Positions 1,656 through 58,128 are shown, counted from the first letter of the stretch. The stretch is 64,000 nucleotides of DNA from an uncultured Candidatus Rokubacteria bacterium (GCA_963826115.1 CAWGVS010000007.1:128001-192000), one strand, 5' to 3'. Program-made: numbers and translations. Notes: generated from the sequence alone by a model not told the origin.

Positions 1656-1689
1656 TGCGCGCCCTCCCGGCCCGGAACTGTCGACGTGA

Positions 1690-1731
1690 TGAAGCATTTT
1701 GCACCGTATCACGGGGCCCGCTATGCTTCAA
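1690..1731. promoter_or_regulatory. Overlapping divergent sigma70-like promoters for ligD (+) and ku (-), flanked by an 8-bp inverted repeat
   Basis: Plus strand TTGCAC(1699-1704)-N17-TATGCT(1722-1727). Minus strand TTGAAG(1731-1726)-N17-TACGGT(1708-1703). Inverted repeat TGAAGCAT(1690-1697)/ATGCTTCA(1723-1730). Confidence 0.55.
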
Positions 1732-1789
1732 AGCGCCCCCGGGACGCCCCACCACTTGGGGTCGCCGCGCGGGCGAGGGCCAGCCCCTA

Positions 1790-7265: not shown

Positions 7266-7981
7266 GGCGCGTCCTCGCGGTAGCGGTAGCCGAGCCCGTG
7301 CACGGTGTCGATCGCTTCGAATGTGGGGTCGACCTCGGCGAACTTGGCGCGGATCCGCTTGACGTGCGAGTCGACGGTCCGCTCGCTGACGTAGGCGTCG
7401 TGGGGATACCCCTGCTCGAGGAGCTGCTTCCGCGAGCGCACGTGGCCCGGCCGGCGCGCGAGGGCGGCCACGATCAGGAACTCGGTGACGGTCAGCGCGA
7501 CGACCACGTCCTTCCAGCGCGCCAGGTGCCGGTCGAAGTCGAGCGTGAGGGAGCCGAGGGTGACCGCGTTGGCCGCCGGCCGCTCGTCCGGGTGCCGGCC
7601 GAGCGCCGCGCGGCGGAACAGGACGCGGACCCGGGCCACCAGCTCCCGTACCGAGAACGGCTTGCAGAGGTAGTCGTCCGCGCCGAGCTCGAGCCCGAGG
7701 ATCCGGTCGAGCTCCTCGTCGCGCGACGTGAGGAAGATGATCGGGAGCGCGGCGCTCCGGACGCGGAGCCGGCGGCAGAGCTCGAGCCCGTCGACGCGCG
7801 GCATCAGGATGTCGAGCACCACGAGGTCCGGCAGGCGGTGCTCGAAGGCCTCCCAGGCGAGCGCGCCGTCGGCGTAGGCCTCCACCTGGTAGCCCTCGCG
7901 CTGGAGCGCGAACCCCACCGTCTCGCGGATCGACTGCTCGTCGTCCACCACGGCGACCCGCCCCTTCTCCCCCGTCGGCAT
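7262..7981 (-). CDS. OmpR-family response regulator, ChvI-like
   Basis: Receiver domain (VVDD, LDILMP, GADDYLCKPF) plus winged helix (LTVTEF, RTVDSHVKRIRAKF, TVHGLGY). Confidence 0.95.
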   Translation of the reverse strand: MPTGEKGRVAVVDDEQSIRETVGFALQREGYQVEAYADGALAWEAFEHRLPDLVVLDILMPRVDGLELCRRLRVRSAALPIIFLTSRDEELDRILGLELGADDYLCKPFSVRELVARVRVLFRRAALGRHPDERPAANAVTLGSLTLDFDRHLARWKDVVVALTVTEFLIVAALARRPGHVRSRKQLLEQGYPHDAYVSERTVDSHVKRIRAKFAEVDPTFEAIDTVHGLGYRYREDAP

Positions 7982-10199: not shown

Positions 10200-10876
10200 G
10201 CCGGCGCAGCGCCCGGCTCCTCTTCCTCGGCCTGATCCTCCTGGCGGCGGGTTTCGGCGCCGCCTCCAGCCGGATCTACGTGAAGGCCTGGCTCGCCCAG
10301 CGGCTCCTCCACCGGGCGTGGGCGGCGACCCAGGCCGGGGGCGGCCCGGTCAAGCCGTGGCCGTGGGCCGACACGTGGCCCGTCGCTCGGCTGTCCCTGC
10401 CGGATCGCGGGGTCGATCTCATCGTGCTGGCGGACGCAAGCGGCCGCTCGATGGCGTTCGGCCCGGGCGTCGTCGCGGGCACGGCCCCGCCGGGCGCGCC
10501 GGGCCACACCGTCCTGGGCGGTCACCGCGACACGCAGTTCCGCTTCCTGAAGGACCTGGCGCCCGGCGAGCGGGTGCGCCTTGAGGCCGCGGACGGCTCG
10601 CGGCGCGACTACGCGGTCACCGAGACGCTGATCGTCGACGCGCACGCCGTAGAGATCCTGTGGGACACGGGCGACGCGCAGCTCTCCCTCGTCACCTGCT
10701 TCCCGTTCGACGCGCTCGTGCCGGGCGGCCCGCTTCGCTACGTCGTGCGGGCGGTCGCGATTCCGCCCGGGGGCCCGGCGGGCGTGACGCGGGCCGGGGG
10801 CGAGGTGCCGCGCGACCCAGGAGGCCGATCAGCTTGGCCGCCAGCGCCGGGCCGGTCCCCGTCTCCTCGTGCTTGA
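10196..10876 (+). CDS. Class GN sortase
   Basis: KAWLAQRLL, PWPWADTWPVARL, GHRDTQF, LVTCFPF, LRYVV (H/C/R catalytic triad). Confidence 0.93.
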   Translation: MSRRSARLLFLGLILLAAGFGAASSRIYVKAWLAQRLLHRAWAATQAGGGPVKPWPWADTWPVARLSLPDRGVDLIVLADASGRSMAFGPGVVAGTAPPGAPGHTVLGGHRDTQFRFLKDLAPGERVRLEAADGSRRDYAVTETLIVDAHAVEILWDTGDAQLSLVTCFPFDALVPGGPLRYVVRAVAIPPGGPAGVTRAGGEVPRDPGGRSAWPPAPGRSPSPRA

Positions 10877-11504
10877 AGTAGACGAACGCGTCGCGCCACT
10901 CGGCCCGCGCCGCGATCGCGGCCCACCGGGCGAGCGCCTTCCGCCCGTAGGCGCGGTCCCGGAGGCGGAGGTAGCCGAAGTCCGCGGTGGGGACGACGGG
11001 CGTGGTGCCGTCCGCCGTGTCGGCGACGCAGAGGGCCGCGTTCCGGGCCCGCAGTGCCCGGTACACCTCGTCGTCGAGCCACGACGCGTGACGGAACTCG
11101 ACGGCCACGCGGACGGACGGCGGGAGGAGCGCCAGGCAGCCGTCGAGCCGCGTCACGTCCTTCCGGAAGTTCGGAGGCAGCTGGAGGAGGAGCGGACCGC
11201 GCTTGGGGCCGAGCCCGGCCAGGGTGTCGAGGAAGGCGGCGAGCGGCTCGGCGGGGTCCCGCAGGCGAGTGAAGTGGGTGATCCACCGCGGGACCTTCAG
11301 CGCGAAGACGAATCCCGGCGGTGTGCCCCGGGCCCAGCCGTCCACCGCCTGGACGGTCGGCGCCCGGTAGAACGTGGCGGTGAGCTCGACCGTGCGGAAG
11401 CGCTCGGCGTAGTACGGCAGCATCCGCGCCGGCGAGAAACGCGCGGGATAGAAGGCGCCCCGCCACGCGGGGTAGCTGTACCCGGACGTGCCGACGTGGA
11501 CCAC
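10692..11504 (-). CDS. DUF72 domain protein
   Basis: VGTSGYSY..W, TVEL..TFY, LKVPRWITH, LLQLPP, VEFRHASW, YLRLR, YFKHE. Confidence 0.92.
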   Translation of the reverse strand: MVHVGTSGYSYPAWRGAFYPARFSPARMLPYYAERFRTVELTATFYRAPTVQAVDGWARGTPPGFVFALKVPRWITHFTRLRDPAEPLAAFLDTLAGLGPKRGPLLLQLPPNFRKDVTRLDGCLALLPPSVRVAVEFRHASWLDDEVYRALRARNAALCVADTADGTTPVVPTADFGYLRLRDRAYGRKALARWAAIAARAEWRDAFVYFKHEETGTGPALAAKLIGLLGRAAPRPRPASRPPGPRAESRPPARRSEAGRPARARRTGSR

Positions 11505-11525
11505 CGGCGGCCGGGCGCCCGCGCC

Positions 11526-12188
11526 TCAGACGGTGGCCGCGCTGAGCGCCGCCTCGCGGAAGCGGCGCACCTCGGCTGCGGGGTCGCGCGTCGCGAAGAT
11601 CGCGGACCCCGCGACCAGCGTCGTCGCCCCCCGGAGCGCGAGCGGGCGGCAGTGCTCGAGCTTCACGCCCCCGTCCACCGACACCTCGAGGGGGCGCTCG
11701 CCGAGGCGGTTCTTCAGGTCCACCAGCTTCGCGTAGGTCGCGGGGATGAAGGTCTGGCCGCCGAACCCGGGATTCACCGACATGATCAGCACGAGATCCG
11801 CGGCGTCGAGCACGTAGTCGAGCATCGCGGTCGGCGTCCCCGGGTTCAGGGCCACGCCCACGCGCGCGCCCAGCTCCCGGATCCGGCCGAGCGTCCGGTG
11901 GAGGTGCGGGCACGCCTCCACGTGCACGGTCAGCGCGGTGCCGCCCGCCCGGACGTAGGTCTCGAGGTAGGGGTCGACGTTGTCCACCATCAGGTGGAGG
12001 TCGAGCGGCAGCTTCGTGTGCTTGCGGATCGCCTCGATGACCGGCGGCCCGATCGTGAGATTCGGCACGAAGTGCCCGTCCATCACGTCGACGTGGATCT
12101 GGTCGGCGCCCCCCGCCTCGACCCGCGCGATCTCGTCGGCGAGCGCGGCGTAGTCGGCCGAGAGGATCGACGGGGCGATCTTGATCAT
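11526..12188 (-). CDS. rpe: Ribulose-phosphate 3-epimerase
   Basis: IAPSILSAD, HVDVMDGHFVPN, MSVNPGFGGQ, VDGG. Start ATG 12188. Confidence 0.98.
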   Translation of the reverse strand: MIKIAPSILSADYAALADEIARVEAGGADQIHVDVMDGHFVPNLTIGPPVIEAIRKHTKLPLDLHLMVDNVDPYLETYVRAGGTALTVHVEACPHLHRTLGRIRELGARVGVALNPGTPTAMLDYVLDAADLVLIMSVNPGFGGQTFIPATYAKLVDLKNRLGERPLEVSVDGGVKLEHCRPLALRGATTLVAGSAIFATRDPAAEVRRFREAALSAATV

Positions 12189-23223: not shown

Positions 23224-24038
23224 GCGACCGCGCGCGCGTGAATCTGTGGCGGCTCGCGATCCTGGTCGTGTTCCTGGGCCTGTGGGAAGGACTGACCCAC
23301 CCGGCGGTCACGAAGTCGGTTTCCCGGATGGTCTACTTCGTGGACCCTTTCTTCATCAGCCGCCCGTCGGCGATCTGGGCCCGGTTCTGGCACCTGAACT
23401 CCGGCGCCGTCCGGGTACCGCTCTGGCGCCTCCTGGGCTCCACCCTCGAGTCCACGGTGCTCGGGTTCGTCGTGGGCGTCGCGAGCGGATTCGTGGCGGG
23501 CCTGGTGCTCGGACGGAACGGCCGGCTGGCCGCGGTCCTCCACCCCTACATCGTGGCGTTCAACTCGCTGCCCCGGATCGCGCTGGTGCCGCTCGTCACG
23601 ATGGTCTTCGGCTTCGGGCTCCTCGCCAAGGTGGTGCTCGCCTGGCTGATCGTCTTCTTCATCGTGTTCTTCAACACGTTCCAGGGCGCCCGCGGGGTGG
23701 ACCCGGACCTCATCCACGCCGCGCGTTTCCTGGGCGCCTCCGAGCGCCAGGTGATGCGGTCCGTGATCGTGCCGTCGGCGCTCGCCTGGACGTTCGCCTC
23801 CCTCACGCCGTCGGTGTCGTTCGCGCTGATCGGCGTCGTGATCGGCGAGTTCATCGGTGGGGAGTCGGGAGGCGGCATCGGCTACCTCATCATCGCCTCC
23901 CTCGGCAGCCTGAACGCCGCCGACATGATGGTGGCGCTCTTCGTGCTCGGCCTGACCGGCATCGTCCTCGCGCTCGGCATCCACCAGGTCGAGGCGCGCC
24001 TCCTCCGCTGGCGCCCCGAGCACCAGGCGCGTGGCTGA
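23220..24038 (+). CDS. ABC transporter permease (SsuC/TauC-like)
   Basis: SRPSAI, NSLPRIALVP, EAA-like AARFLGAS, VVIGEF. Confidence 0.93.
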   Translation: MSDRARVNLWRLAILVVFLGLWEGLTHPAVTKSVSRMVYFVDPFFISRPSAIWARFWHLNSGAVRVPLWRLLGSTLESTVLGFVVGVASGFVAGLVLGRNGRLAAVLHPYIVAFNSLPRIALVPLVTMVFGFGLLAKVVLAWLIVFFIVFFNTFQGARGVDPDLIHAARFLGASERQVMRSVIVPSALAWTFASLTPSVSFALIGVVIGEFIGGESGGGIGYLIIASLGSLNAADMMVALFVLGLTGIVLALGIHQVEARLLRWRPEHQARG

Positions 24039-26724
24039 GGCGCGGCGGCCCGCGCCGGACGCGGGCCCGCCGGCGCGCGGCGCGCCGCCCGGGCCAGGCC
24101 TCGCACGGGGTGTCCGGCAGAGCGTGCTGGTCGTCTTGCTCCTCGTCGGGCTGGCGATCGTCCTCACCTGGCCCGTCGCGGCGCGCCTCGGCGACGGCGT
24201 CGCCGACCTCGGGGATCCCCTGCTGACGACGTGGATCCTGGCGTGGGACGTCCACGCGCTGGCGAGCGCGCCCCTCCGCTTCTTCGACGCGAACATGCTC
24301 TACCCGCGGCGCCAGGCGCTCGCCTACACCGAGCACCTCGTGGGGCTCGTGCCGCTGGCCGCCCCCGCGCGCCTCCTCGGCGCGCCGCCCCTGCTCGCTC
24401 ACAACCTGGTCTGGCTGGCGACGTTCCCCCTGACCGGCCTCACGATGTTCTGGCTCGTCCGGCACCTGACGGGCGCGGCGGGGCCGGCCGCGGTGGCCGC
24501 GGTGCTCTACGCCTTCTCCCACTTCCGCTTCGGCCAGCTGGGCCACGTCCAGGTGCTGAGCCATCAGTGGCTCCCCCTCCTGCTCCTCGGCCTCCATCGC
24601 GCCGCGCGGAGCGGCGGCCGATGGCGGGACGTCGGGCTCGCGGCGGGCGCGTTCGCGCTCCAGGCGCTGTCGTCGGGCTACCAGGCCTTCTTCGCGGCGA
24701 TCGCGGGCGGCCTCTTCGTGGCGTGGCTCGCCGGGCCGTCCACGCGGCCGCCGCTCGGTCGCCTCGCCGCCCGCGGCGCGATCGCCGGCGCCGTGGTCGC
24801 GCTGGTGCTCCTGCCCTTCTTCCTGCCGTACCGCGCGTCACGCGAGGAGATCGCGCGCGCCCGGAACCCGCGGGAGATCGAGTACTACATGGCGTGGCCG
24901 GCCGCCTACCTGGCGGCGCCGGTGGACAACCGGTGGCTCGGCGACGCCACGGCCCCCTTCCGGCGGCGCGAGGCGGTCCTGTTCCCGGGCGTGGTGGCGC
25001 TCGCGCTCGCCCTCGCGGGCGCGACCCTGGCGGGACGGCCGCGGCGGGAGGCCGCGCCGCGCGCCCCGGCGCCCGGCGGGCGCTGGCCCGTGGCGCTCGA
25101 CGTGGCGCTGAGCGTCGTCACGCTCGTGACCCTCGCCAACTGGCTCCTCGTCGGCGGGATCGCCGTGCGCCTGGGTCCGCTCCGCGTCTCGCAGCGCAGC
25201 TTCGGCTGGGCCTTCGCGGCGCTCGCCCTCGCGTTCCTCGCGCGGCGGATCGTCCGGGGCGGGCCGGCGCCGGTCCGCGGGCTCGGCTGGCTCCGACGGC
25301 TCGCGTGGCCCGAGGCCCGCGGCTACTACGTCGCGCTCGTGCTCGTCGGCGTGCTCGCGTCCTTCGGGCCGTGGCTCGACCTCGGCGCGCACCGCGTCCA
25401 GCCGCTCTACCAGCAGCTCCGCGCGATCCTGCCGGGCTTCGACGCCCTCCGCGTCCCCGGACGCTTCGGGGTCCTGGTGACGACCGGGCTCGCGGTCCTG
25501 GCGGGGCTCGGCGCCGCCGCGCTCGTGCGACGGATTCCCCGGCCGGTGGCGCGGGCCGCCGCGCTCGCGGCGGTCGGCGTCCTGGCCGCGCTCGAAGCGT
25601 GGGCGACGCCGCTCCCCCTGGTGAGCGTGGCGACCGAGCCGGGACCGGTCGACCGCTGGCTCGCCGCCCGGCCGGGCCCGGACGCGGTGGCGGTGCTCCC
25701 GATGTACGAGCCGCACGCCGTCCACCTCGAGAGCGTGAGGCTCTTCGCCTCGACCGCGCACTGGCATCCGCTGGTGAACGGCTACGCCGGCGTCCTGCCG
25801 CCGGGGTACGCGGAGGACGCGGAGATCCTGAACACCTTCCCGTCGCCGGCCGCCGTCGCGCGGCTCCGCGAGCTCCGCGTGCGCTACGTGGTCGTGTACC
25901 TCGGCCAGTACCGGGAGGAGGTGCGCCCGGAGCTCGACGCCGCCCTCCAGGCGCTCCCCGCGGGAGTGACCCGCGTGGCAAGCTTCGAGCAGGCGCGGAT
26001 CTACGAGATCGGCCCCGCGGGGCCGCGCGCGTCAGGCGACGCGGGTGGTGCGGACGAAGGCCCGCGACCGCGCCAGCGCGTCGGAGTCGGCGAGCCCGGC
26101 CGCCTCCAGCGCGTCGAAGCAGTCGGAGATCGTGAGCACGGCGTGGAGCCGGTAACCCTTCTGGGCGAGCCGCTCACGCGCGCCCTGCTCCCGATCGATC
26201 AGGACCACCAGGTCCTCCACCACGAGGCCGGCGGCCTCGAGCGGCGCGATCGCCTCGAGCTTCGACGCGCCGTCGGTGACGATGTCGTCGATCACCACGA
26301 CGCGCTCGCCGGCCTGGAACGTCCCCTCGATCCGTCGTCGGGTGCCGTACGCCTTCTCCTCGCGCCGCGGGTAGACGAGCGGCACGCCGCCCGCCAGGCT
26401 CGCGGCCACCGCCAGCGGCAGCCCCGCGTACGGGATGCCCGCGATCCGGTCCACCCGACAGCGCGCGACCGCGGCAGCGAGGAGGCGGCCGACCTGGCCC
26501 AGCACGTCCGGATGCGAGATCACGACCCGCAGATCGATGTAGAAGGGCGAGGTCATCCCGGACTTCAGCACGAACTCGCCGAAGCGGACGCCGCCGATCT
26601 CGTGGAGCCGGCGCACGAGCGCGGCCGCGCCGGAGTCGCTCACGCGCCGAGCTCGGCGAGGATCGCGGCCGCCGCGGCGGCCGGGTCGGCGGCGCCGGTG
26701 ATCGGCCGGCCCACGACCAGGTAG
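24031..26724 (+). CDS. Multi-pass membrane protein, YfhO/GT-C-like. Family-like sequence ends near 26020, but the frame stays open across pyrE.
   Basis: [40 protein letters not shown] and many TM helices. Confidence 0.75.
26032..26643 (-). CDS. pyrE: Orotate phosphoribosyltransferase
   Basis: [38 protein letters not shown]. Start GTG 26643. Confidence 0.97.
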
Positions 26725-34975: not shown

Positions 34976-35935
34976 TTACCGTTCGCTCGGACTGTACGTC
35001 GGGCCTCCCGCCCTGTCAAGCGGCGGGCCCTCCGCGCGCGGCTCGGTGGACCACGGCGGGAACGCGAGGTACCGGCACTGGGCGGGAAATCGCCGCACGT
35101 ATGCCTCGACCAGTGGCGCCAGCACCGCCTGGCACCGGGCTGCGTCGCGCGCGGGGTCGGGGTCCGGCTCCGGAAGCGGGGGGTGCACGACGATCACGTG
35201 CCGTTTGCCGTCGCGATGCGCGAGAACCGGGAGTGTCGGCGCCCGGCTCATCCGGCGGAGCGCGAGCCAGCCGCCGCGCACGACGAGGTCGCCGCCCGGG
35301 AGCGCGATCCGGAACGCCTCGCGGCCGAACGGCCCATCGGCCGAGAGAGAAACCAGCGCGCCGCCCCGCAGGAGCTCCAGCACTTGGTAGAGGCCAACCA
35401 GCCGGGCACGAGCCGATCCGCCTGGCAGGCGGACGGCCTCGCCGGCGGCGAGCGCCTCCGCCCAGCGCGGGTCGCGGGTGGACGCCTCGAGCCGGCCGGC
35501 GAGCCGGACCGGGTAGCCCAGGGCCCGTAGGCGGAACCAGGTCCGAGGCGAGCCTAGGTGGAACCCGAGGAGGATCACGCCCCCGCCGGCCCCGGCGAGG
35601 TGCTCGGCTCCCTCGAGGACAACGCCGCGGCGAATGGCCGCCGTCGTCGACTCACCCAGGAACGCCTCCTCAGCGCAGAAACGTCCGTGGGTCGCGAGGG
35701 TCGCGAGGGCGAGACGCCAGGGGGGACCGGCCCGCCCAGGCTGGGCCGCCGCCCACACCGTGGCCTGGCGGAACCGCGTGGGATGGACCAGTCCGTCGGC
35801 CATGGCCATGACCGCCAAGACCACCTCGCCGACCGGACGCGGGAGCGGACGGAGCAGTCGCACGAGCCTCCCGAGGCGGTGGGAGGTGTGGAACATCCCA
35901 GGCACGACGTGCCCGGGCAATTCCGGCGCGCTCAC
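34976..35935 (-). CDS. LpxL/HtrB-like lysophospholipid acyltransferase family protein
   Basis: LEGAEHL, GVILLGFHLG, LRGGALVSLSADG, LEAYVRRFPAQ-like C-terminal segment (VEAYVRRFPAQ). Start GTG 35935, coupled to the ACP stop. Confidence 0.72.
   Translation of the reverse strand: MSAPELPGHVVPGMFHTSHRLGRLVRLLRPLPRPVGEVVLAVMAMADGLVHPTRFRQATVWAAAQPGRAGPPWRLALATLATHGRFCAEEAFLGESTTAAIRRGVVLEGAEHLAGAGGGVILLGFHLGSPRTWFRLRALGYPVRLAGRLEASTRDPRWAEALAAGEAVRLPGGSARARLVGLYQVLELLRGGALVSLSADGPFGREAFRIALPGGDLVVRGGWLALRRMSRAPTLPVLAHRDGKRHVIVVHPPLPEPDPDPARDAARCQAVLAPLVEAYVRRFPAQCRYLAFPPWSTEPRAEGPPLDRAGGPTYSPSER
34991..35019 (-). promoter_or_regulatory. sigma70-like promoter of the pyr operon
   Basis: TTGACA(35019-35014)-N17-TACAGT(34996-34991). 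Confidence 0.8.
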
Positions 35936-36201
35936 GGACCGCCGCGCTTCGAGCGGACCAGCTCGGTGAGCGTCCCGAGGGTCTCCAGGGCCTCGCGCGT
36001 GAGGTCGCGGGTCGCGTCGAATACGATTTCGAACTCGGTCTCGCACGCCACGATCACCTCGAGCAGCTCCACCGAGTCGAGCCAGAAGCCCGCCTCCGAG
36101 AGCGGCGTGGCCGAGCCCGCGGGATGAGGGGTCCGCGCCGGACCCGCCACCCGCTCGACGAGCGCCCGCGTCGCCTCGAGCACCGGGTCGGTCGCGCTCA
36201 C
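35932..36201 (-). CDS. Acyl carrier protein
   Basis: 89 aa with LDSVELLEVIVACETEFEI (phosphopantetheine Ser motif). GTG 36201 coupled to the upstream stop. Confidence 0.88.
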   Translation of the reverse strand: MSATDPVLEATRALVERVAGPARTPHPAGSATPLSEAGFWLDSVELLEVIVACETEFEIVFDATRDLTREALETLGTLTELVRSKRGGP

Positions 36202-37616
36202 CGAGCGGGCGCCCGCGCGAGGAGGCTGACGCACGCGAGACGGTCGGGCTTGCCGTTCGGCAGACGAGGCAGCGACGGGACGACCTCGAGCGCGCGGGGC
36301 CACGACCAGGGCGGGAGCTTGTCGGCCAGCCCGGTTCGCAGGGCCGCGACGGCCACCCCGGGCTCGCACTCGATGACCGCGCCGAACGAGCGGCCGGCCG
36401 GGCCGTCCAGCGGGACCACGACCGCCCCGGTGACCCCCGTCATCTCGCCGAGGGTCGCGGCGACGGCGGCGAGGTTCACGAGCCGACCCTCGCGCGTGCG
36501 GATGCAGTCGTCCAGGCGTCCGGCCAGGACGAGGCGGCCGTCCTCCCGGAGGGCGCCAACGTCCCGGGTCGGCCACCACCCCTCCACCTGGACTGGACGC
36601 TCCACGGCCGGGGGGAACCCGTAGCCCGCCATGAGCCACGGCGTCCGGACCCAGATGCGGCCCGGCTCGCCCGGGGCCGCCCGGGCAGCGGGATCGTCCC
36701 CGATGCGCACCGCCACGCCGGACAGCGGCCGCCCGACTGTTTCCGGCCGGACCTCGGCGGCCGGACCGTCGTCGGAGGCGATGAACGCCGTCTCCGTGGA
36801 CGAGTACGACTGGCGCAGCGGCACGCCGAACCGGGCGAGAAAGGCATCGCACACGGCACTCGGGACCAGGCTCGACACCAGGCAGAGGCGCGGCGCAACC
36901 GGGGGGCCGACGAGCGCGCAGCGCCCAAGCGCGTCGGCGAAGTGCAGCGATGCCCGCCAGCACGCGAACGCGGGCGAGGCGAGCGCGGCGAGCGCGGCGC
37001 GGTGATCGAGGGGATCGAGCAGGCCGAGCGCGCCGCCGAGCACCATCGACACGAGGAGGTAGTTGAGCCCCTGGGCCGAGGCGAGCGACGCGCCGATCAG
37101 CACGCCCTCGCCCGATCTCAGCGCGGCGGCCCGCGCCCGCGCTCCCGCGAGGAGAGCGGCCGTGGGCCGGTAGACGGCCCTCGGCCCACCCGTGGAGCCC
37201 GAGGTGAAGAGGACCACTCCCGGCCCCGCCAAGGGCACGAACGGCGGGGCGTTCATCGCCGGGCCCTCACCTGGCTCGTGGAGCAGGAGGGGCGCGAGAC
37301 CCGCCTCCTGGGCCGCGGAGGCGAGATGCCGCAGAGCGGGCGGCAGGATCAAGGGCGTGCCGTCGGGCACGGCCGGCGCGGTCCGCCAGGCGCGGACATC
37401 GGGCGGCAGCACCACCAGCGGGCCAGGGAGCGCGCTGAGCCCGACGAACAGCGCGACACCCTCCGCCGACGCCGGCAGCGCCGTCGCCACCAGCCCGCCC
37501 TGCTCCCCGAGCCGGCCGAGGACCTCTCCGCGCCACCGCCGCGCGAGCGCGTCCAGCTCGTCCGCCGACCACCAGCGACCGAGCGTGAACACGCGGGGCA
37601 TCGTCAGCGGCGACAT
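36198..37616 (-). CDS. ANL-family adenylate-forming enzyme (acyl-CoA/acyl-ACP ligase-like)
   Basis: LFTSGSTGGPR P-loop, YSSTE, TRDVG, GRLDD, LPRLPNGKPDR. Confidence 0.9.
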   Translation of the reverse strand: MSPLTMPRVFTLGRWWSADELDALARRWRGEVLGRLGEQGGLVATALPASAEGVALFVGLSALPGPLVVLPPDVRAWRTAPAVPDGTPLILPPALRHLASAAQEAGLAPLLLHEPGEGPAMNAPPFVPLAGPGVVLFTSGSTGGPRAVYRPTAALLAGARARAAALRSGEGVLIGASLASAQGLNYLLVSMVLGGALGLLDPLDHRAALAALASPAFACWRASLHFADALGRCALVGPPVAPRLCLVSSLVPSAVCDAFLARFGVPLRQSYSSTETAFIASDDGPAAEVRPETVGRPLSGVAVRIGDDPAARAAPGEPGRIWVRTPWLMAGYGFPPAVERPVQVEGWWPTRDVGALREDGRLVLAGRLDDCIRTREGRLVNLAAVAATLGEMTGVTGAVVVPLDGPAGRSFGAVIECEPGVAVAALRTGLADKLPPWSWPRALEVVPSLPRLPNGKPDRLACVSLLARAPAR

Positions 37617-37622
37617 GGGCGG

Positions 37623-37651
37623 ACTCTAAGGACGACGGGCGTTCGGGTCAA
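37623..37651 (-). promoter_or_regulatory. sigma70-like leaderless promoter of the adenylation/ACP/acyltransferase cassette
   Basis: TTGACC(37651-37646)-N17-TAGAGT(37628-37623)-N6-ATG. Confidence 0.7.
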
Positions 37652-38895
37652 GGCGCCGGCGCGTCCGCGCGTGGACCGCCGGTCACCCGGCCGCCCTTGA
37701 CGACCAGGAAGCGCGCCGGCAGCCCTCCGACTGCCTCGGCGAGCGTGGTCGCGTCGAGGACCACCAGGTCGGCCGGGGCGCCGACGGCGAGTCCGCGGGC
37801 GTCCCGGCCGAGGATCCGGGCCGGCTCGGTCGTCACCATGTCGAGCGCCGCCGCCATGTCGGCCGCGCCGCCCATGTGCGCGCCGACGACGAGGAGGTAC
37901 GTCAGGAGCAGGGGGTCGGCGTTGCCCGCGGGCGTGAAGGCGTTCTGGACGTTGTTCGTGGCGGCCGCCACGGTCACCCCGGCGGCGAGGAGCCGCTTGA
38001 TCGGCGTGAGCCCCCGGCGAACGTTCCGCGCGTCTCCGCGCCCCATGAGATAGAGGTCGGTCGCGGGCAATGTGATCACGGCGACCCCGGCCGCGTGGAG
38101 CCGGCGCGCGACCCGCGCCTGCTCGACGGCATCGCACGCCCCGAGCTCGGTGAGGTGGCCGACCGCGACGCGACCCTGCCAGCCGTGCCGCTCCGTCCGG
38201 TCCACGATGGCCTCCACGTGACGGTGCACCGGCTCGTCGGCGAAGTCGGCGTGGAAGTCGGCGGCGCAGTCGAACTCCCGCGCGAGGGCGAACACCCGGT
38301 CCACGTGCTCGGTGCCGTCCGTGTCGTTGTAGGGGCACCCACCGACCAGGTCGATACCGGCCCGGAGCGCCGCGCGCAGGAGGGGCTCGGTGCCCGGCGC
38401 CCGGAGGATCCCCTCCTGGGCGAAGGCGCAGAGCTGGAGGTCCAGGCGGTCTGCGTACTCGGCGCGGAGCGGCAGCACCGCCTCGACGCCGCGGAGGCCG
38501 ACGATCGGATCGACCTCGACGTGGCCGCGCATCGCCGTCGTGCCCAGCGCCACCGCGTGGTCGAGCAGGCGCCGGGCCCGCGTCCGGATGTCGTCGACGG
38601 TGAAGGCGCGCTTGGCCTCGGCGGTGACGCGGATCGCCTCCGCCAGGGTGCCCTCGCGGCTCGGCGTGCGCGAGAGGAGGTACGCCTTGTCCAGGTGGAC
38701 GTGGGCGTCCACGAAGCCGGGCACGACGAGCCGCCCCGCGGCGTCGATCCGCTGGCGCGCCGGTGTCCCGGCAAGGTCGCCGAGCGCCGCGATCCGCCCG
38801 CCGCGGACACCGACGTCGGCGAGCTCGCCGGCCGGCGCCGGCCGGCCCGCCGCCACGACGAGGTCGAAGGGCTCTCCGGAGTCCACCGGGCTCAC
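37648..38895 (-). CDS. Amidohydrolase, cytosine deaminase-like
   Basis: DAHVHLDK, GTTAMRGH, AFAQEG, FHAD, GH, NAFTPAG. Confidence 0.9.
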   Translation of the reverse strand: MSPVDSGEPFDLVVAAGRPAPAGELADVGVRGGRIAALGDLAGTPARQRIDAAGRLVVPGFVDAHVHLDKAYLLSRTPSREGTLAEAIRVTAEAKRAFTVDDIRTRARRLLDHAVALGTTAMRGHVEVDPIVGLRGVEAVLPLRAEYADRLDLQLCAFAQEGILRAPGTEPLLRAALRAGIDLVGGCPYNDTDGTEHVDRVFALAREFDCAADFHADFADEPVHRHVEAIVDRTERHGWQGRVAVGHLTELGACDAVEQARVARRLHAAGVAVITLPATDLYLMGRGDARNVRRGLTPIKRLLAAGVTVAAATNNVQNAFTPAGNADPLLLTYLLVVGAHMGGAADMAAALDMVTTEPARILGRDARGLAVGAPADLVVLDATTLAEAVGGLPARFLVVKGGRVTGGPRADAPAP

Positions 38896-38998: not shown

Positions 38999-41518
38999 AT
39001 GGACGCGGTCGTCTCGACGCTCCGCACCGTGTCGCTCTTCGCCGACCTCCCGCGCGAGGTGCTGGCCCGCCTCGTGAGCGAGTTCGACGAGCTGGACGTC
39101 GCCGCCGGCGAGACGGTGTTCTCGCAGGGCGACCCCGGGGACGCGCTCTACGTCATCGTGAGCGGGGCCGTCGAGGTGCGCGGCGAGCGCGACGGCCGGA
39201 GCGAGCGCGTCGCCGTCCTCGGTCCCGGGGACTGTCTCGGCGAGATGGCGCTCGTCACGGGCGACCCGCGCTCGGCCTCGGTCGTGACGCTGTCGGCGAC
39301 GCGGCTCCTCCGGCTCGACAAGGAGCGGTTCCGCGTCCTGTCGGACCGGCAGCCCGTCTTCCTCCGGGAGCTCGCGCGCGTGCTGTGCCGCCGCATCGCG
39401 CGGACGTCGGCGGACGTCGCCCACGCGCGCCGCGCCTACACGACCGTCTTCGACACGATCCTGGCCGGTGCCGAGCCCCCGGCCCGGCGCCTCCTCGACG
39501 TCCTGGCGGTGGCCAAGCGGGCCGACGCGGGGGTCCTGATCGCCACTCTCGGGGACGCCGGCCCAAGCATCGCGGCCGAGGTCGCCGCCCACCATCCTGC
39601 CCTGGTCTTCCGGGACGAGCGCGGGCGCTACGAGCTCCACCCCGAGTTCCGCGACCACGTCCGGCGGCGGCTCGGCGACGCGAACGGCGCCGACGGCACC
39701 CAGGACCTCCACGTCGCCCTCGCGACCGCGCACGGCGGCGGGGGCGCGTGGGCCAAGGGCGCGCGGCACTGGCTGGCCGCGGGCCGCTGGGACGAGGCGG
39801 CGCACGCGATCCGCAAGGCGCTGGCGTCCGGCACCCCGCCGACGGACGCGGAGCTCGAGACCTGGCTCGACCGCCTCCCCGAGGACGTGCTTCTCCAGGC
39901 CGACCTCGGTCCCGCGAAGGCGAGCCTCCTCGTCCGGACCGGACGCTCGGACGTCGCGGGGGCGCTCCTCGAGCGCGCGTTCTCGGGACGGCGGCTGGAC
40001 GGCGACGCGCGCGACCGCCTGGTGCGGAGCCTGGGCACTCTCTACGCGCAGCGCGGTCGCCCTGGGGGCGGGGCGGGCGGCCCGGCCGGACCCGGCGCGC
40101 CGCGCGCCGCGGCGACGCGAAAGGGCGGCAGCGCCCGGTGGGCCATCGGCCTCGCGCTGGCGGTCGCGATCGGCGCCGTCGTGCTCTGGATCCCGCCGGC
40201 CGGGCTCGAGCCGCGCGCGGTCCGCTTCCTCGCGGTCCTTGCGGCGGGCACGGTGCTCTGGGCGTGGGGCAGCTTCCCCGACTACGTGGTCGCCCTCGGA
40301 ATGGGCATGGCGTGGGTGCTCCTCCGCGTGGCGCCCACCGCAACCGCGTTCGGAGGGTTCGCGACGAGCACGTGGTTCCTGATGCTGGGCGTCCTCGGAC
40401 TGGGGGCGGCCCTCGCCCGCTCGGGGCTGCTCTACCGGATCACGCTCGTCGCGGTGCGACGCTTCCCGCCCACGTTCGTCGGGCAGACGGGCGCCCTCCT
40501 CAGCGCCGGCATCGTGTCGACCATCCTCATCCCCTCGGCCCAGGCACGGGTGACCTTCATGGGACCGGTGGTCCTCGGCCTGGCGGACACGCTCAAGTAT
40601 CCGCCGCGAGGCCGGGGCAGCGCCGGGCTCGCAATGGCCGCCTTCACGGGCTTCAACCTGGCGACGACGCTCTTCCTCACCGGGACGACAACGTGCCTGC
40701 TCGCGTGGCGGGTCCTGCCCGAGGCGACGCGGGCTCAGGTGACCTGGCTCGCGTGGCTCCAGGCCGTCCTCGTGCTCGAGGCGGTCAGCCTGGGCGCCGC
40801 GCTCGCGTGGATCGCCTGGCGCTACCGGCCGGCGGGACCGACCCCGGTGCGGGCGACCCTGCTCCACGCCCAGCTCCAGATGCTCGGCCCGCCCTCGCGG
40901 GACGAGTGGATCACCGGGCTGGTCGCGCTCGCCGTCGTCGCCGGCTGGATCACGCAGCCGTGGCACGGGGTCGATCCGGCGTGGCTCACGCTCGGGGCGC
41001 TCTGCCTGCTCCTGGCCATGCAGGTCCTCGACCGGGCGGCGCTCCAGGGCCAGGTCGACTGGGCGTTCCTGCTCTTCATGGGGATCGCCTTCAGCCTGGC
41101 CGACCTCGCCGCCCACGTCGGCGCGGACGCCTGGTTCGCGTTGCGCGCCCGCGCCGCGCTTGGCGACATCACGACGCCGGCGGCGGCCGTGACCGCCGCG
41201 GTGCTGATCACCATCCTGGTGCGCTTCGCGCTCCCGTGGCAGACGGCGGTGCCGCTCCTGACCGTGGCCCTGACGCCGTTCGTGGAGGCGGCGGGCGTGA
41301 GCCCGCTCATCGTGGCGCTGGTGGCGCTCAAGGCCGGGAACGTGTTCCTCCTGCCCCAGCAGAGCCCCACCTACCTGACGCTCTACTACGGCACCGAGGA
41401 GCGGGCCTTCGGCCATCGCCAGGTGCGCCCGTTCGCGTGGCTGTACGCGGCGGCCGTCCTGGCCGGCTTCCTCCTGAGCCTCCCCTACTGGCGCGCGCTC
41501 GGACTGGTCACGGGCTGA
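38999..41518 (+). CDS. cNMP-binding domain + MalT-like helical region + SLC13/DASS-family permease fusion
   Basis: cNMP domain (FSQGDPGDALY, LGEMALVTGDPRSASV), middle segment YELHPEFRDH..HWLAAGRWDEAA..WLDRLP, DASS hallmarks (SGLLYRI, IPSAQAR, LFLTG, WITQPWHG, VDWAFL, PQQSP). Confidence 0.85.
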   Translation: MDAVVSTLRTVSLFADLPREVLARLVSEFDELDVAAGETVFSQGDPGDALYVIVSGAVEVRGERDGRSERVAVLGPGDCLGEMALVTGDPRSASVVTLSATRLLRLDKERFRVLSDRQPVFLRELARVLCRRIARTSADVAHARRAYTTVFDTILAGAEPPARRLLDVLAVAKRADAGVLIATLGDAGPSIAAEVAAHHPALVFRDERGRYELHPEFRDHVRRRLGDANGADGTQDLHVALATAHGGGGAWAKGARHWLAAGRWDEAAHAIRKALASGTPPTDAELETWLDRLPEDVLLQADLGPAKASLLVRTGRSDVAGALLERAFSGRRLDGDARDRLVRSLGTLYAQRGRPGGGAGGPAGPGAPRAAATRKGGSARWAIGLALAVAIGAVVLWIPPAGLEPRAVRFLAVLAAGTVLWAWGSFPDYVVALGMGMAWVLLRVAPTATAFGGFATSTWFLMLGVLGLGAALARSGLLYRITLVAVRRFPPTFVGQTGALLSAGIVSTILIPSAQARVTFMGPVVLGLADTLKYPPRGRGSAGLAMAAFTGFNLATTLFLTGTTTCLLAWRVLPEATRAQVTWLAWLQAVLVLEAVSLGAALAWIAWRYRPAGPTPVRATLLHAQLQMLGPPSRDEWITGLVALAVVAGWITQPWHGVDPAWLTLGALCLLLAMQVLDRAALQGQVDWAFLLFMGIAFSLADLAAHVGADAWFALRARAALGDITTPAAAVTAAVLITILVRFALPWQTAVPLLTVALTPFVEAAGVSPLIVALVALKAGNVFLLPQQSPTYLTLYYGTEERAFGHRQVRPFAWLYAAAVLAGFLLSLPYWRALGLVTG

Positions 41519-47907: not shown

Positions 47908-47987
47908 TCGGAAATCTGATCATCGGGCCGGCGGTGGCGCGCGTCACGCTCCCGGTGTAGCCTCCGGGTAGCTCGCCCGAGCGGCCG

Positions 47988-49676
47988 ATGTCCACGCCCG
48001 ACCCGTCCGACTCTCTCGACGCGCTGGCGGAGGTGCTGGAGGCGCTGCGCGCGACGCGCTCGCGCCTCGAGAAGCGCCGCCTCCTGGTCGCCTACCTCCG
48101 GGCGCTGCCGGACGACGCGCTGGCGCACGCGGTCACCTATCTCGGCGGGCGGCCGTTCCCCCGCGGCGATGGCCGCACGCTGTCGGTGGGCGGGGCGACC
48201 CTCGATGCGGCGCTCCGCGCGGCGCGGCCGGAGCTGACCGACGAGGACGTCACGGCCGCCTGGCGCCGGCACGCGGACGCGGGCGACGCCGCCGCCGAGC
48301 TCTGGGCCGACACCGCGCCGGCCGATGCCTCGCCGATGCGCCTCGCCGACGTCGCCGCGATCTTCGAGGTCCTTCACCGCGCCCGCGGGCCCCGGGCGAA
48401 GGCGGAGCTGCTCGTCGCCGCGTTCCGGCGCCTGCCCGCCCGCGAGATCCGCGCGTTCGTCAAGGCGATGCTCGGCGAGGCGCGGATCGGCGTCCAGGAG
48501 CAGACCCTGGAGGACGCCGTGGCCCACGCGGTCGGCCAGCCGATCGAGGCCGTCCGCGCCGCGAACCGCCACCGGGCCGACCTCGGCGCGGTCGCGCGGG
48601 AGGCGCGCCGGGGGCCGCTCGAGCCCGCGCGGTTCGCCTACTTCACGCCCGTCGACCCCATGCTCGCGCAGCCGGCCGCCGACGCCGCCGACGCCGTCCG
48701 CCGGCTCGGAGCGCCGCTCTGGGTCGAGGACAAGTACGACGGCGTCCGGTGCCAGCTCCACAAGGTCGACGCGGAGGTCCGCCTCTACTCGCGGGACCGG
48801 CGCGAGCTGACGGTTCAGTTCCCCGAGGTCGTGGCCGGGTTCGCCGCCGCGCCGGGCCGGTACGTCCTGGACGGCGAGGTCCTCGCGATGGAGGACGGCC
48901 GCGCGCGCCCCTTCCTCCGCCTCCAGCAGCGGCTCGGGCGGCTCGAGCCCGCGCCGGACGTCGTGGCCGCGCACCCGGTGGCGCTGGTCGCCTTCGACTG
49001 TCTCGCGCGCGGGGACGAGGGCCTCCTCGACGCGCCGCTCCGGACCCGGCGCGCGGCGCTCGAGAGCCTCCCGCTGCCGGCCGGCCAGGTCCTCGCGCCC
49101 GTGTGGACGGCGACGAGCGCCGACGACCTGGACGCGCTCTTCCGGGCGGCGCAGGCCCGGGGGAACGAGGGATTGATGGTGAAGCAGCCGGATGCGCCCT
49201 ACGCGTCAGGACGCCGGGGCGCCCAGTGGCTCAAGGTCAAGCGTCCGCTCGAGACGCTCGACGTCGTCGTGGTCGGCGCGGAATGGGGCCACGGCAAGCG
49301 CCGCGCCGTGCTCTCCGACGTCACGTTCGCCGTGCGCGACGAGGCGACGGGGCGCCTGGTGACGATCGGCAAGGCCTACAACGGGCTCACCGACGCGGAG
49401 ATCCGCGAGATGACCGAGCGGCTCCTCGCGCTCACCGTCGAGGACCGGGGCCGCTACCGGACCGTGCGGCCCGAGATCGTCCTCGAGGTGGCATTCAACC
49501 ACCTCCAGCGCTCGGCGCGCCACACCGCCGGCTATGCGCTCCGATTCCCGCGCATCGTGCGCGTCCGCGCGGATCGGGCGCCCGAGGGCGCGAGCACGCT
49601 CGCCGACGTGGCCCGCCTCGCGGCCACGCTCGAGGCGGCCGGGCCGCCCTCGACCGGATCGGAGGTCGAGCGCTGA
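47988..49676 (+). CDS. ATP-dependent DNA ligase (LigB/archaeal-type with N-terminal DNA-binding domain)
   Basis: EDKYDG, LDGE, FDCL, EGLMVK, WLKVK, LRFPRI. Confidence 0.95.
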   Translation: MSTPDPSDSLDALAEVLEALRATRSRLEKRRLLVAYLRALPDDALAHAVTYLGGRPFPRGDGRTLSVGGATLDAALRAARPELTDEDVTAAWRRHADAGDAAAELWADTAPADASPMRLADVAAIFEVLHRARGPRAKAELLVAAFRRLPAREIRAFVKAMLGEARIGVQEQTLEDAVAHAVGQPIEAVRAANRHRADLGAVAREARRGPLEPARFAYFTPVDPMLAQPAADAADAVRRLGAPLWVEDKYDGVRCQLHKVDAEVRLYSRDRRELTVQFPEVVAGFAAAPGRYVLDGEVLAMEDGRARPFLRLQQRLGRLEPAPDVVAAHPVALVAFDCLARGDEGLLDAPLRTRRAALESLPLPAGQVLAPVWTATSADDLDALFRAAQARGNEGLMVKQPDAPYASGRRGAQWLKVKRPLETLDVVVVGAEWGHGKRRAVLSDVTFAVRDEATGRLVTIGKAYNGLTDAEIREMTERLLALTVEDRGRYRTVRPEIVLEVAFNHLQRSARHTAGYALRFPRIVRVRADRAPEGASTLADVARLAATLEAAGPPSTGSEVER

Positions 49677-57169: not shown

Positions 57170-58090
57170 TTAGTGGGTGGCGACGCGCGGGCGTCGCCGC
57201 GCAGCGCCTTCCCACGCCGCCTCGACGTGAACCGGGGTCCGCCGCGGCGCGACATCCTCCCACCGCCGCGCGGCCTTCACGATCTCGCGGACGAGGAGGT
57301 GGTTCAGCGCGTGCCCGGCGTTCCGCGCCACGACGTGACCCAGCATCGGACGGCCGACCAGGGACAGGTCCCCGATGACGTCGAGGATCTTGTGGCGGAC
57401 GAACTCGTCCTGGAACCGGAGGGCGCCGTTCAGGATCCGCTCCTGCCCGACCACGACGGCGTTGGAGAGGTTGCCGCCGAGCGCCAGGCCCTGTTGCCGG
57501 AGGAGCTCGAGGTCCTTCAGGAAGCCGTAGGTCCGGGCGGGCGCGAGCTCCTCGACGAAGACCCGCTCGGACGGCACGAACGACGCGACCTGAACCCCCA
57601 CCGCGGGATGCTCGTGGTCGAGCGTGTAGCTGATGCGGAACTCGGACGCCGGCAGGATCTGGAGCCAGCGGTGCTCGTCGCCCACCCGGATGGGCTCGGC
57701 CACGCGGAGCGGCTGGGGCCGCACGGCGACCTGCGCCTCGCGTCCCGCCGTGTAGAGCAGCGCGACGAAGGGCGCGGAGCTGCCGTCCACCGCGGGCAGC
57801 TCGGGGCCGTCCAGCTCGATCACCAGATTGTCGATCCCGAGGCCGCGCACCGCCGCCAGGAGGTGCTCGACGGTCTGGATCTGCACGCCGTCGGCCCCGA
57901 TGGTGGTCGCGTAGTGACCGTTGATGAGCGACTCCGGACACACCGGGACGCGCACGCGCTCGCGGCCCACCACGAACACCACGCCGTGGTCCGGCGGGGC
58001 CGGCAGGAGCGCCATCGTGACCGGCACCCCGGTGTGCAGTCCCACGCCCTCGCAGGTCACCGGCTTCCGGATCGAGTGCTGAAGCTCCAT
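57170..58090 (-). CDS. lpxC: UDP-3-O-acyl-N-acetylglucosamine deacetylase
   Basis: GVGLHTG, TVEHLLAA, ARTYGF, HKILDVIGDL, GH. Confidence 0.97.
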   Translation of the reverse strand: MELQHSIRKPVTCEGVGLHTGVPVTMALLPAPPDHGVVFVVGRERVRVPVCPESLINGHYATTIGADGVQIQTVEHLLAAVRGLGIDNLVIELDGPELPAVDGSSAPFVALLYTAGREAQVAVRPQPLRVAEPIRVGDEHRWLQILPASEFRISYTLDHEHPAVGVQVASFVPSERVFVEELAPARTYGFLKDLELLRQQGLALGGNLSNAVVVGQERILNGALRFQDEFVRHKILDVIGDLSLVGRPMLGHVVARNAGHALNHLLVREIVKAARRWEDVAPRRTPVHVEAAWEGAARRRPRVATH

Positions 58091-58128
58091 CAGTCAGGGA
58101 CCCTCCATGGTCCCGGGCGGGGGACTAG

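Follow-up and report, generated by a model that had tools for sequence, protein, structure and literature searches.

The subject of this analysis is a three-gene operon on the minus strand of a 64,000-nucleotide stretch of DNA from an uncultured Candidatus Rokubacteria bacterium (GCA_963826115.1 CAWGVS010000007.1:128001-192000; the whole stretch is called the window). The three genes occupy 34976-37616 and encode products of 472, 89, and 319 amino acids (aa), assigned to an adenylating ligase, an acyl carrier protein (ACP), and a lipid A acyltransferase-like enzyme. The trio is a real, intact, conserved, and uncharacterized operon that represents a variant of the carrier-dependent, LpxL-family transfer design in uncultured soil phyla. 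The balance of evidence tips modestly toward a line of acyl transfer that depends on a carrier protein and works at the cytoplasmic face of the inner membrane, a mechanism that holds no surprise as far as the evidence now goes.

Conservation and layout of the operon

Genes were taken from an open reading frame (ORF) listing and frame-specific G+C content at third codon positions (GC3) in the window, which is 74% G+C. The operon consists of the following features.

36198..37616, minus strand: stand-alone adenylating ligase of the ANL superfamily, 472 aa, PF00501
35932..36201, minus strand: putative dedicated acyl carrier protein, 89 aa, phosphopantetheine site Ser43 in WLDSVELLEV
34976..35935, minus strand: PatA/LpxL-like acyltransferase (Lip_A_acyltrans clade), 319 aa, predicted catalytic pair His126 and Asp200
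37623..37651, minus strand (-35 at the 37651 end): promoter-like site TTGACC-17 nt-TAGAGT, a consensus match

A scan of one genome per species yielded 11 related loci (L001 to L011), which belong to Candidatus Rokubacteria/Methylomirabilota and to Acidobacteriota (among them Vicinamibacterales). Nine of the 11 have the genes in the order ligase-carrier-acyltransferase, which bears out the co-occurrence that an earlier, sequence-only reading of this DNA had put forward as a check. The same reading had described the genes as coupled by GTGA overlaps, and the sequence GTGA is present at both junctions, so that each of these start codons shares bases with the stop codon before it: the carrier GTG overlaps the ligase TGA, and the acyltransferase GTG overlaps the carrier TGA. 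NTGA overlaps were found at the ligase/carrier junction in all eight loci examined and at the carrier/acyltransferase junction in eight of nine. At least 10 of the 19 acyltransferase clusters on contigs of at least 20 kb were matched to a ligase-family cluster by identical contig size. The pairwise identities of ligases and acyltransferases correlate (r = 0.79), a value reached by 1 of 5000 Mantel permutations. These data support the prediction that the three genes are one conserved, translationally coupled unit.

No fused ligase/carrier/acyltransferase forms turned up in a search for longer proteins, which is weak evidence. Two candidate fusions (P0206 and P0244) were rejected because the carrier is joined to the acyltransferase by Arg-rich, out-of-frame-looking linkers, and both are read as frameshifted or merged gene calls. 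They place a carrier next to an acyltransferase on further contigs.

The consensus scan found two promoter-like sites in 5 kb versus 0.0 expected from shuffles. The -35 hexamer of the trio site shares bases with the stop codon of the amidohydrolase gene upstream, and the ligase ATG (37616) starts 6 nt past the -10 hexamer, so the predicted ligase mRNA would be leaderless or nearly so. This agrees with the leaderless promoter proposed earlier for the trio. The site is kept in L001 and not in L002, two closely related genomes. The trio is thus predicted to be its own transcription unit, between the amidohydrolase gene and the pyr operon.

Acyltransferase fold and active site

The third gene encodes a protein with the PatA/LpxM fold. 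PatA and LpxM chains filled ranks 1-12 in a Foldseek search of the PDB with the AlphaFold2 model (pLDDT 89.5, pTM 0.88), with E = 1.1e-9 to 8.9e-9 and a probability of 1.00. TM-scores against these chains were 0.54-0.58 when normalized to the query and 0.56-0.72 when normalized to the target, and PlsC and a plant glycerol-3-phosphate acyltransferase (GPAT) came next in the ranking. The acyltransferase-like identity given from the sequence alone is borne out by this result, whose E-values lie near 1e-9. By sequence, the protein has no Pfam match at E ≤ 0.01 and a weak match to the NCBIfam LpxL model (E = 0.0084; 15.3 bits against a cutoff of 540). Its relatives connect it to the same clade: PF03279 (Lip_A_acyltrans) is present on all 30 of the nearest ESM-Atlas clusters and is precomputed on 51 of 120 relatives among the matches listed, and the remoter relatives are LpxL/PatA-like by NCBIfam, none above cutoff. 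The family is small, with 324 matches at E ≤ 0.001 and 71 at E ≤ 1e-30 among 1.84 billion representatives; the closest relative of the window protein is 74% identical. The protein is basic (net charge +14), and hydropathy analysis predicted no transmembrane helix.

The H-x4-D/E motif reads HLGSPR (residues 126-131). The alteration pointed out from the sequence alone is thus present, but it is a family trait and fails as an indication of unusual chemistry; catalysis by PatA and VexE does not require an acidic residue at the sixth position. Across the family the motif reads HLG[PS]P[RKN]: all 30 relatives have His126, and in all 30 the sixth position is non-acidic (Arg, Lys, Asn, or another such residue). 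Asp200 is kept in at least 90% of the 30 relatives, and the most conserved 20-residue blocks are 121-140 and 201-220. The family profile aligned with PatA over nearly its full length, in a weak alignment (E = 0.04) that places His126 on the His of PHSGNWD and Asp200 on the Glu of LMAERD. In PatA, His126 is the base, Glu200 is its charge-relay partner, and Asp131 of the HX4D motif is structural; HtrB, MsbB, and PatA all use the block-3 carboxylate (PMC4792965). VexE is active with a Tyr at the sixth motif position and is acyl-ACP dependent (PMC9597891). HLGSPR is typical of its clade and argues for neither inactivity nor exotic chemistry. With an invariant His126 and an Asp200 that lines up with the catalytic Glu200 of PatA, the acyltransferase looks active.

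Ligase and carrier protein

PF00501 matched the ligase with 93.6 bits against a cutoff of 29.9, which places it in the ANL superfamily. It falls below the cutoff of every one of 83 NCBIfam families, all by a wide margin, and its top match, to a long-chain-fatty-acid-CoA ligase subfamily, scores 99.8 bits where the cutoff is 476. The closest relative is 64% identical. Ser139-Gly140-Ser141, Glu275-Thr276, Asp352, and Gly366-Arg367-x-Asp369 are invariant or nearly so in 28 aligned relatives, and Lys456 is kept in at least 90% of them; we take these residues to be the P-loop, A5, A7, A8 hinge, and A10 Lys motifs. The AlphaFold2 model (pLDDT 89.6) retrieved oxalate-CoA ligase and the malonyl-CoA synthetase MatB as the top four Foldseek PDB matches, with McbA and benzoate-CoA ligases also found; the E-values across ANL enzymes lie in a narrow band (7e-34 to 2e-29). 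The acyl-ACP synthetase structure 8hsy matched with a query-normalized TM-score (TMq) of 0.76. By sequence, the best solved relatives are 6sq8/6h1b (titled McbA, amide bond synthetase), the VinN-type 3wvn, adenylation (A) domains of nonribosomal peptide synthetases (NRPS), and benzoate-, oxalate-, and succinylbenzoate-CoA ligases. DltA sits in the middle of the list (E = 3e-12 against 5e-25 for the best match; profile scores of 92.6 against 144.2 bits), and by this measure the ligase appears no nearer DltA than many other ANL enzymes.

The sequence-only reading had drawn attention to LASAQG (residues 178-183), which lacks a His. This holds for the window copy and some close kin and does not hold for the family: many of the 28 relatives have LxHGQG or LAHGxG, with the His at the position of window Ser180, so the missing His is a trait of the window lineage. 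A conserved Asp at the A4-like site occurs in none of the 28 relatives, which mostly have His or another non-acidic residue. We take an Asp at this site to be the mark of amino-acid activators and a His to be no such mark.

The carrier scored 16.7 bits with the PP-binding model, below the cutoff of 20.8. A profile built from 10 carrier orthologues matched solved acyl carrier proteins first (best E = 1.7e-7). Asp42-Ser43 is invariant in all 10 orthologues, within the motif WLDS(V/I/M)E(L/M)LEV. The profile also matched 4h2s, an 'aminoacyl carrier protein' structure (E = 1.7e-5), and no D-alanyl carrier protein was present among its matches at E ≤ 0.1. An ACP model associated with OlsH/OlsI gave a weak match to the carrier (E = 5.8e-4). 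PF00501, the ACP profile, and the PatA/LpxM fold together sustain the identities first proposed for the three genes.

Evolution of the operon

The window, L001, and L002 represent three syntenic Rokubacteria genomes that share the neighborhood cNMP-DASS transporter (a cyclic-nucleotide-binding anion symporter), amidohydrolase, trio, pyrR, pyrB, and pyrC. The trio was compared over 34976-37616 in the window, 6281-8936 in L001, and 6290-8933 in L002. Identity across the three genomes is 59-72% for the trio and 81-95% for the flanking genes. The nonsynonymous rate (dN) is 0.20-0.31 for the trio versus 0.035-0.11 for the flanks (0.085-0.11 for the non-housekeeping ones), and the ratio to the synonymous rate (dN/dS) is 0.34-0.55 versus 0.09-0.24; dS of the trio is moderately above that of the flanks. 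The raised dN together with a dN/dS below 1 indicates purifying selection at a pace of evolution about three times that of the neighbors. Either relaxed constraint or diversifying selection may account for the fast divergence.

All three trio proteins look functional from their sequences, given the ANL motifs including the A10 Lys, the invariant carrier Ser, the His126/Asp200 pair, and a dN/dS below 1.

In the acyltransferase tree, an Acidobacteriota clade (98/98) stands apart from a Methylomirabilota clade (100/99), and the window, L001, and L002 proteins are not placed firmly with either; the ligase tree is similar. The operon has the same G+C as its flanks. GC3 is 0.863 for the acyltransferase (2 of the 36 other window genes are lower), 0.922 for the carrier (12 of 36), and 0.918 for the ligase (10 of 36). 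The lower GC3 noted by eye is therefore weakly upheld for the acyltransferase, and the carrier and ligase lie inside the window range. Recent horizontal acquisition finds no support in the synteny in three Rokubacteria genomes, the flank-like G+C, GC3 within the window range, and the clade-separated trees. The earlier suggestion of a horizontally acquired system is thus unsupported; the trio lies at the same place, between the amidohydrolase gene and pyrR, in the window and on contigs of two Rokubacteria metagenome-assembled genomes.

Two of these contigs carry interrupted frames outside the trio. DASS, pyrB, and pyrC are split into adjacent-frame tblastn pieces in L001 (2393-4904 and 10624-11924) and L002 (9682-11914), and these look like assembly frameshift errors rather than real pseudogenes.

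Genomic context

A transporter gene lies within ~1.5 kb of the trio at 10 of 10 trio-bearing places, the window included, and these represent at most ~6 independent contexts. DASS anion symporter genes stand behind the amidohydrolase gene in the window, L001, and L002, and are divergent from and adjacent to the ligase gene in L006, L007, and L008. L006 (4725-11811) has a second DASS and ligase pair after the full trio, at 8852-10285 (-) and 10396-11811 (+). The ligase of this pair shares 46% identity with that of the L006 trio, and neither a carrier nor an acyltransferase goes with it. MsbA-like ABC exporter genes overlap the ligase start in L005 and follow the acyltransferase in L003; the best NCBIfam match of both exporters is MsbA_lipidA (395 and 209 bits, each below the cutoff of 602). 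In L010 (4656-8861), a gene for a family-5 solute-binding protein (NikA/Opp-like, 6111-7667) sits between the ligase and carrier genes, with ABC-importer ATPase genes upstream. L009 has an MFS gene two genes from the trio. The lone acyltransferase gene of L011 lies between two EpsE-like glycosyltransferase genes (GT4 and GT2).

DASS as a part of the window cassette is a doubtful candidate: the DASS proteins of the two phyla are not orthologous, and the window copy does not show the fast divergence.

Two of the loci have features of their own. L006 (CAYLTD010000022.1) is labeled 'uncultured Bifidobacterium sp.' and is 70.5% G+C. It is syntenic with the Acidobacteriota loci L007 and L008, shares DASS, the trio, DUF481, and glyoxalase with them, and groups with both in the trees; the Bifidobacterium label is probably wrong. 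L004 encodes a 406-aa multi-span membrane protein (6569-7789) at the place where related Acidobacteria loci have the ligase and carrier. This protein belongs to no Pfam or NCBIfam family and has a weak Atlas match to PMT_2-type glycosyltransferases.

Proposed function and alternatives

The proposed acyl-transfer line would run in three steps. The family of the ligase suggests that it adenylates a free carboxylic acid not delivered by the housekeeping fatty acid synthase. The coupling of the genes suggests that the ligase then thioesterifies this acid to the phosphopantetheine arm on carrier Ser43. The basic, peripheral acyltransferase would finally move the acyl group from the carrier, its presumed donor, to a hydroxyl of a membrane glycolipid, its presumed acceptor. 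Fold model and alignment point to His126 as the general base of this reaction, tuned by Asp200. Carrier-bound donors are usual in the clade of this acyltransferase: LpxL, LpxM, and VexE take acyl-ACP (PMC9597891).

The most likely acceptor is lipid A or a lipopolysaccharide (LPS) precursor, as indicated by the acyltransferase clade together with LpxC and the MsbA-like neighbors. The window encodes LpxC (57170-58093) and diacylglycerol kinase, and the presence of LpxC means that the host makes lipid A. That the operon has a carrier and a ligase of its own points to a donor not supplied by housekeeping fatty acid synthesis. The evidence leans slightly toward a small or polar non-amino organic acid over a long-chain fatty acid, on the basis of the compact 472-aa ligase, its oxalate- and malonate-ligase structural neighbors, and the pairing and duplication of DASS with the ligase. 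An alpha-amino acid is the least likely donor. The unusual acyl or aminoacyl group first suggested as the cargo is thus retained in its acyl part, and the aminoacyl part is less likely in view of the mid-list position of DltA and the lack of a conserved Asp in 28 relatives.

In its most specific form, the proposal is that the cassette esterifies lipid A, or a different glycolipid of the outer membrane, with a small polar acid (e.g. a hydroxy- or dicarboxylic acid) that in Acidobacteria would be taken up through the adjacent DASS. Taken as a whole this version is improbable. If it were true, the operon would give a first view of the enzymes that place 'tertiary' non-fatty acyl groups on lipid A, and the three-fold faster divergence at a fixed locus would represent diversification of surface chemistry. 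Small-acid esters of lipid A are known as malate in Oligotropha and 3-hydroxybutyrate in rhizobia, and in 2020 the genes behind them were described as unexplored (PMC7663294).

Several observations weigh against the proposed acyl-transfer line and its small-acid donor. The lean toward a small acid is weak, because the Foldseek E-values differ little and the profile favors McbA, an NRPS A-domain, and VinN. The window acyltransferase lacks a Pfam match and the carrier falls below its Pfam cutoff. L004 and L011 have an acyltransferase with no ligase or carrier within 8 kb, so a lone acyltransferase can use another donor, perhaps housekeeping acyl-ACP or, as PatA does, acyl-CoA. Long fatty acyl chains are the usual cargo of the PatA/LpxL clade. 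In the tree, a path of ~6 substitutions/site separates the DASS proteins of the Rokubacteria loci from those of the Acidobacteria loci, which makes them very distant. The window DASS gene is split from the trio by the amidohydrolase gene, and its product is 81-94% identical between genomes versus 59-72% for the trio. The distance between the phyla and the lack of the trio's divergence in the window DASS make the DASS link persuasive for the Acidobacteria group only.

The ligase might instead act as an acyl-ACP synthetase on a free fatty acid that is long-chain, branched, or hydroxylated, a route that is unlikely overall and still carries a substantial minority of the probability. Its outcome, of the same standing, would be a secondary acyl chain on lipid A or the re-acylation of a lysolipid; AcpXL/LpxXL is the model for the former and Escherichia coli Aas for the latter. 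This route accords with the top NCBIfam match of the ligase to a long-chain-fatty-acid-CoA ligase subfamily (99.8 versus 476 bits), with the 8hsy acyl-ACP synthetase match (TMq 0.76), and with the MsbA-like exporters adjoining the trio in L003 and L005. The clade members PatA, which transfers palmitoyl, and VexE, LpxL, and LpxM move chains of C12-C16 or longer (PMC4792965, PMC9597891). The ligase is, however, short and under all fatty-acid-ligase cutoffs, neither the window nor the loci have genes for fatty acid elongation or a hydroxylase next to the trio, and the DASS and ligase pairing, duplicated in L006, better fits a soluble anion. There is a low probability that the acceptor is something other than lipid A: a capsule or exopolysaccharide anchor or sugar, another membrane glycolipid, or a soluble natural product. 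VexE acylates UDP-GlcNAc for a capsule anchor (PMC9597891) and PatA acylates a mannolipid (PMC4792965), the L011 acyltransferase lies between GT4 and GT2 EpsE-like glycosyltransferases, and the best sequence match of the ligase, 6sq8, is titled amide bond synthetase McbA. Against such an acceptor, no glycosyltransferase or polysaccharide-export genes adjoin the trio in the window, L001, or L002, none of 32 neighbor proteins scanned at nine trio-bearing loci is of these kinds, and further biosynthetic genes (ketosynthase (KS), NRPS) are absent.

A true analogue of AlmEFG or Dlt, in which an amino acid such as glycine or D-alanine is the substrate of the ligase and aminoacylation of lipid A lowers its negative charge, is very unlikely. 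The three family types and the gene order are those of almE-almF-almG (PMC4278540), the 4h2s 'aminoacyl carrier protein' matches the carrier profile (E = 1.7e-5), and NRPS A-domains and VinN are among the better ligase sequence matches. These points are countered by the mid-list DltA (E = 3e-12 versus 5e-25; 92.6 versus 144 bits), by the absence of a D-alanyl carrier protein at E ≤ 0.1 for the carrier profile, and by the A4-like site, which we assume to be diagnostic and which has a conserved Asp in 0 of 28 ligase relatives. That the trio is a decaying or non-functional remnant, its fast divergence reflecting relaxed constraint, is barely credible. Such decay would explain a dN about three times that of the non-housekeeping flanks (0.20-0.31 versus 0.085-0.11) and a Ser in the window ligase where many relatives have His, but dN/dS is below 1 (0.34-0.55), the frames are intact, no catalytic residue is lost, the gene overlaps persist across phyla, and there is a promoter-like site.

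Neighboring genes in the window

The 5' neighbor of the trio is a cytosine-deaminase-like amidohydrolase gene (37648-38895). On the other side, the second promoter-like site and an RNA element were located at the junction with the pyr genes.

35019-34991, minus strand: promoter-like site TTGACA-17-TACAGT, inside the 3' end of the acyltransferase gene
34977-34873, minus strand: PyrR-binding RNA element, Rfam RF00515, 45.4 bits (below the gathering score of 54), E = 4e-4

Because the site lies just before the PyrR-binding element, it is the predicted promoter of the downstream pyrR-pyrB-pyrC-carA-carB operon. PyrR models match the listed 242-aa PyrR ORF from residue ~60 onward, and the true start is therefore probably ~55-60 codons further downstream.

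Beyond the amidohydrolase gene, 38999-41518 (+) encodes an 839-aa protein with a cyclic-nucleotide-binding domain (residues 34-115) and a DASS anion-symporter domain (384-800), which would be a cNMP-regulated transporter. The ~270 residues between these domains match nothing. Elsewhere in the window, a Ku and LigD (phosphoesterase-ligase-primase/polymerase) nonhomologous end-joining pair and, further on, a second ATP-dependent DNA ligase are encoded at 786-4447 and 47961-49676. A 922-aa ORF at 23956-26724 (+) is strongly GC3-biased (0.92) and matches no Pfam family at E ≤ 1e-5.

Comparison with known systems

No paper in the limited literature collection that was searched describes the trio, and no described system matches it, in keeping with the earlier suggestion that it is possibly undescribed. 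The closest in layout is AlmE-AlmF-AlmG of Vibrio cholerae, which places glycine on lipid A and whose co-transcribed genes encode, in the same order, a ligase, a small carrier that is phosphopantetheinylated, and a lipid A acyltransferase-family transferase (PMC4278540). The carrier-bound group of AlmEFG goes to a lipid (PMC4278540), and the same is proposed for the trio. The trio carrier has the phosphopantetheine Ser (Asp42-Ser43 in 10 of 10; ACP profile E = 1.7e-7), and the third gene belongs with the lipid A late acyltransferases, likened to AlmG by family type and not by sequence. The ligase differs: with DltA as the stand-in for AlmE, it does not look to be of the DltA/AlmE glycine-activating type and is probably no amino-acid activator. 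The hosts also differ, Vibrio for AlmEFG and soil Rokubacteria and Acidobacteria for the trio. The AlmEFG logic proposed from the sequence alone is plausible because the trio order recurs in 9 of 11 related loci, and with the shared family types it makes a fair analogy; membership in the system finds no support at the sequence level, and the ligase fails the comparison with DltA.

Within the lysophospholipid acyltransferase (LPLAT) clade of PatA, LpxL-LpxM, and VexE, the acyltransferase shares the fold, the block-1 catalytic His, and the block-3 carboxylate, and VexE also has a non-acidic residue at the sixth position of HX4D/E (PMC9597891). It differs as a separate, divergent branch with no NCBIfam membership and no N-terminal membrane helix, and its gene is linked to its own ligase and carrier. 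The aryl-polyene (APE) cluster of E. coli CFT073 combines the acyl-ACP synthetase ApeH, the carriers ApeE and ApeF, and the acyltransferase ApeD; its adenylating enzyme charges a dedicated ACP with no CoA ester in between, and the role proposed for its acyltransferase is to tether the product to a lipid of the envelope (PMC8253772). The trio carrier profile resembles ApeE (hhalign probability 95, E = 3e-8), and the ligase profile matches ApeH at the general ANL level only (probability 97.9, 25% identity). Membership in the APE family of clusters was rejected because ApeD is unrelated to the trio acyltransferase (probability 0.4 against the family profile) and no KS, ketoreductase (KR), or dehydratase (DH) genes occur among the trio neighbors.

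The rhizobial AcpXL/LpxXL system, which places a fatty acid with a very long chain on lipid A, also has a dedicated ACP that feeds an LpxL-family transferase. Its chain is built by genes like those of fatty acid synthase (FAS) and is not known to come from ligase activation of a free acid, and no FAS-like genes lie beside the trio. The OlsH/OlsI ornithine-lipid pathway of planctomycetes shares ATP-dependent acid activation for a non-canonical membrane lipid (PMC12493201). The trio was rejected as a member because OlsH is GH3-like and OlsI is an alpha/beta-hydrolase, families other than those of the trio (PMC12493201). McbA, VinN, MatB, and oxalate-CoA ligase are the best sequence or structure matches of the ligase and have a similar compact size. 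They differ in their 20-27% identity, with no curated family cutoff reached, and in that the partners of the trio ligase are a carrier and an acyltransferase.

Rokubacteria and Acidobacteria of the Vicinamibacteria type are phyla that abound in soil and of which hardly any members have been cultured, and to our knowledge their envelope chemistry is essentially uncharted. A compact, self-contained operon that activates, carries, and transfers could reveal a new lipid A or glycolipid decoration, and could add a new substrate class for the LpxL/PatA acyltransferase clade. Its comparison with AlmEFG indicates that the design of an adenylating enzyme, a private carrier, and an LpxL-like transferase known from Vibrio also occurs, in unrelated subfamilies, in environmental bacteria.

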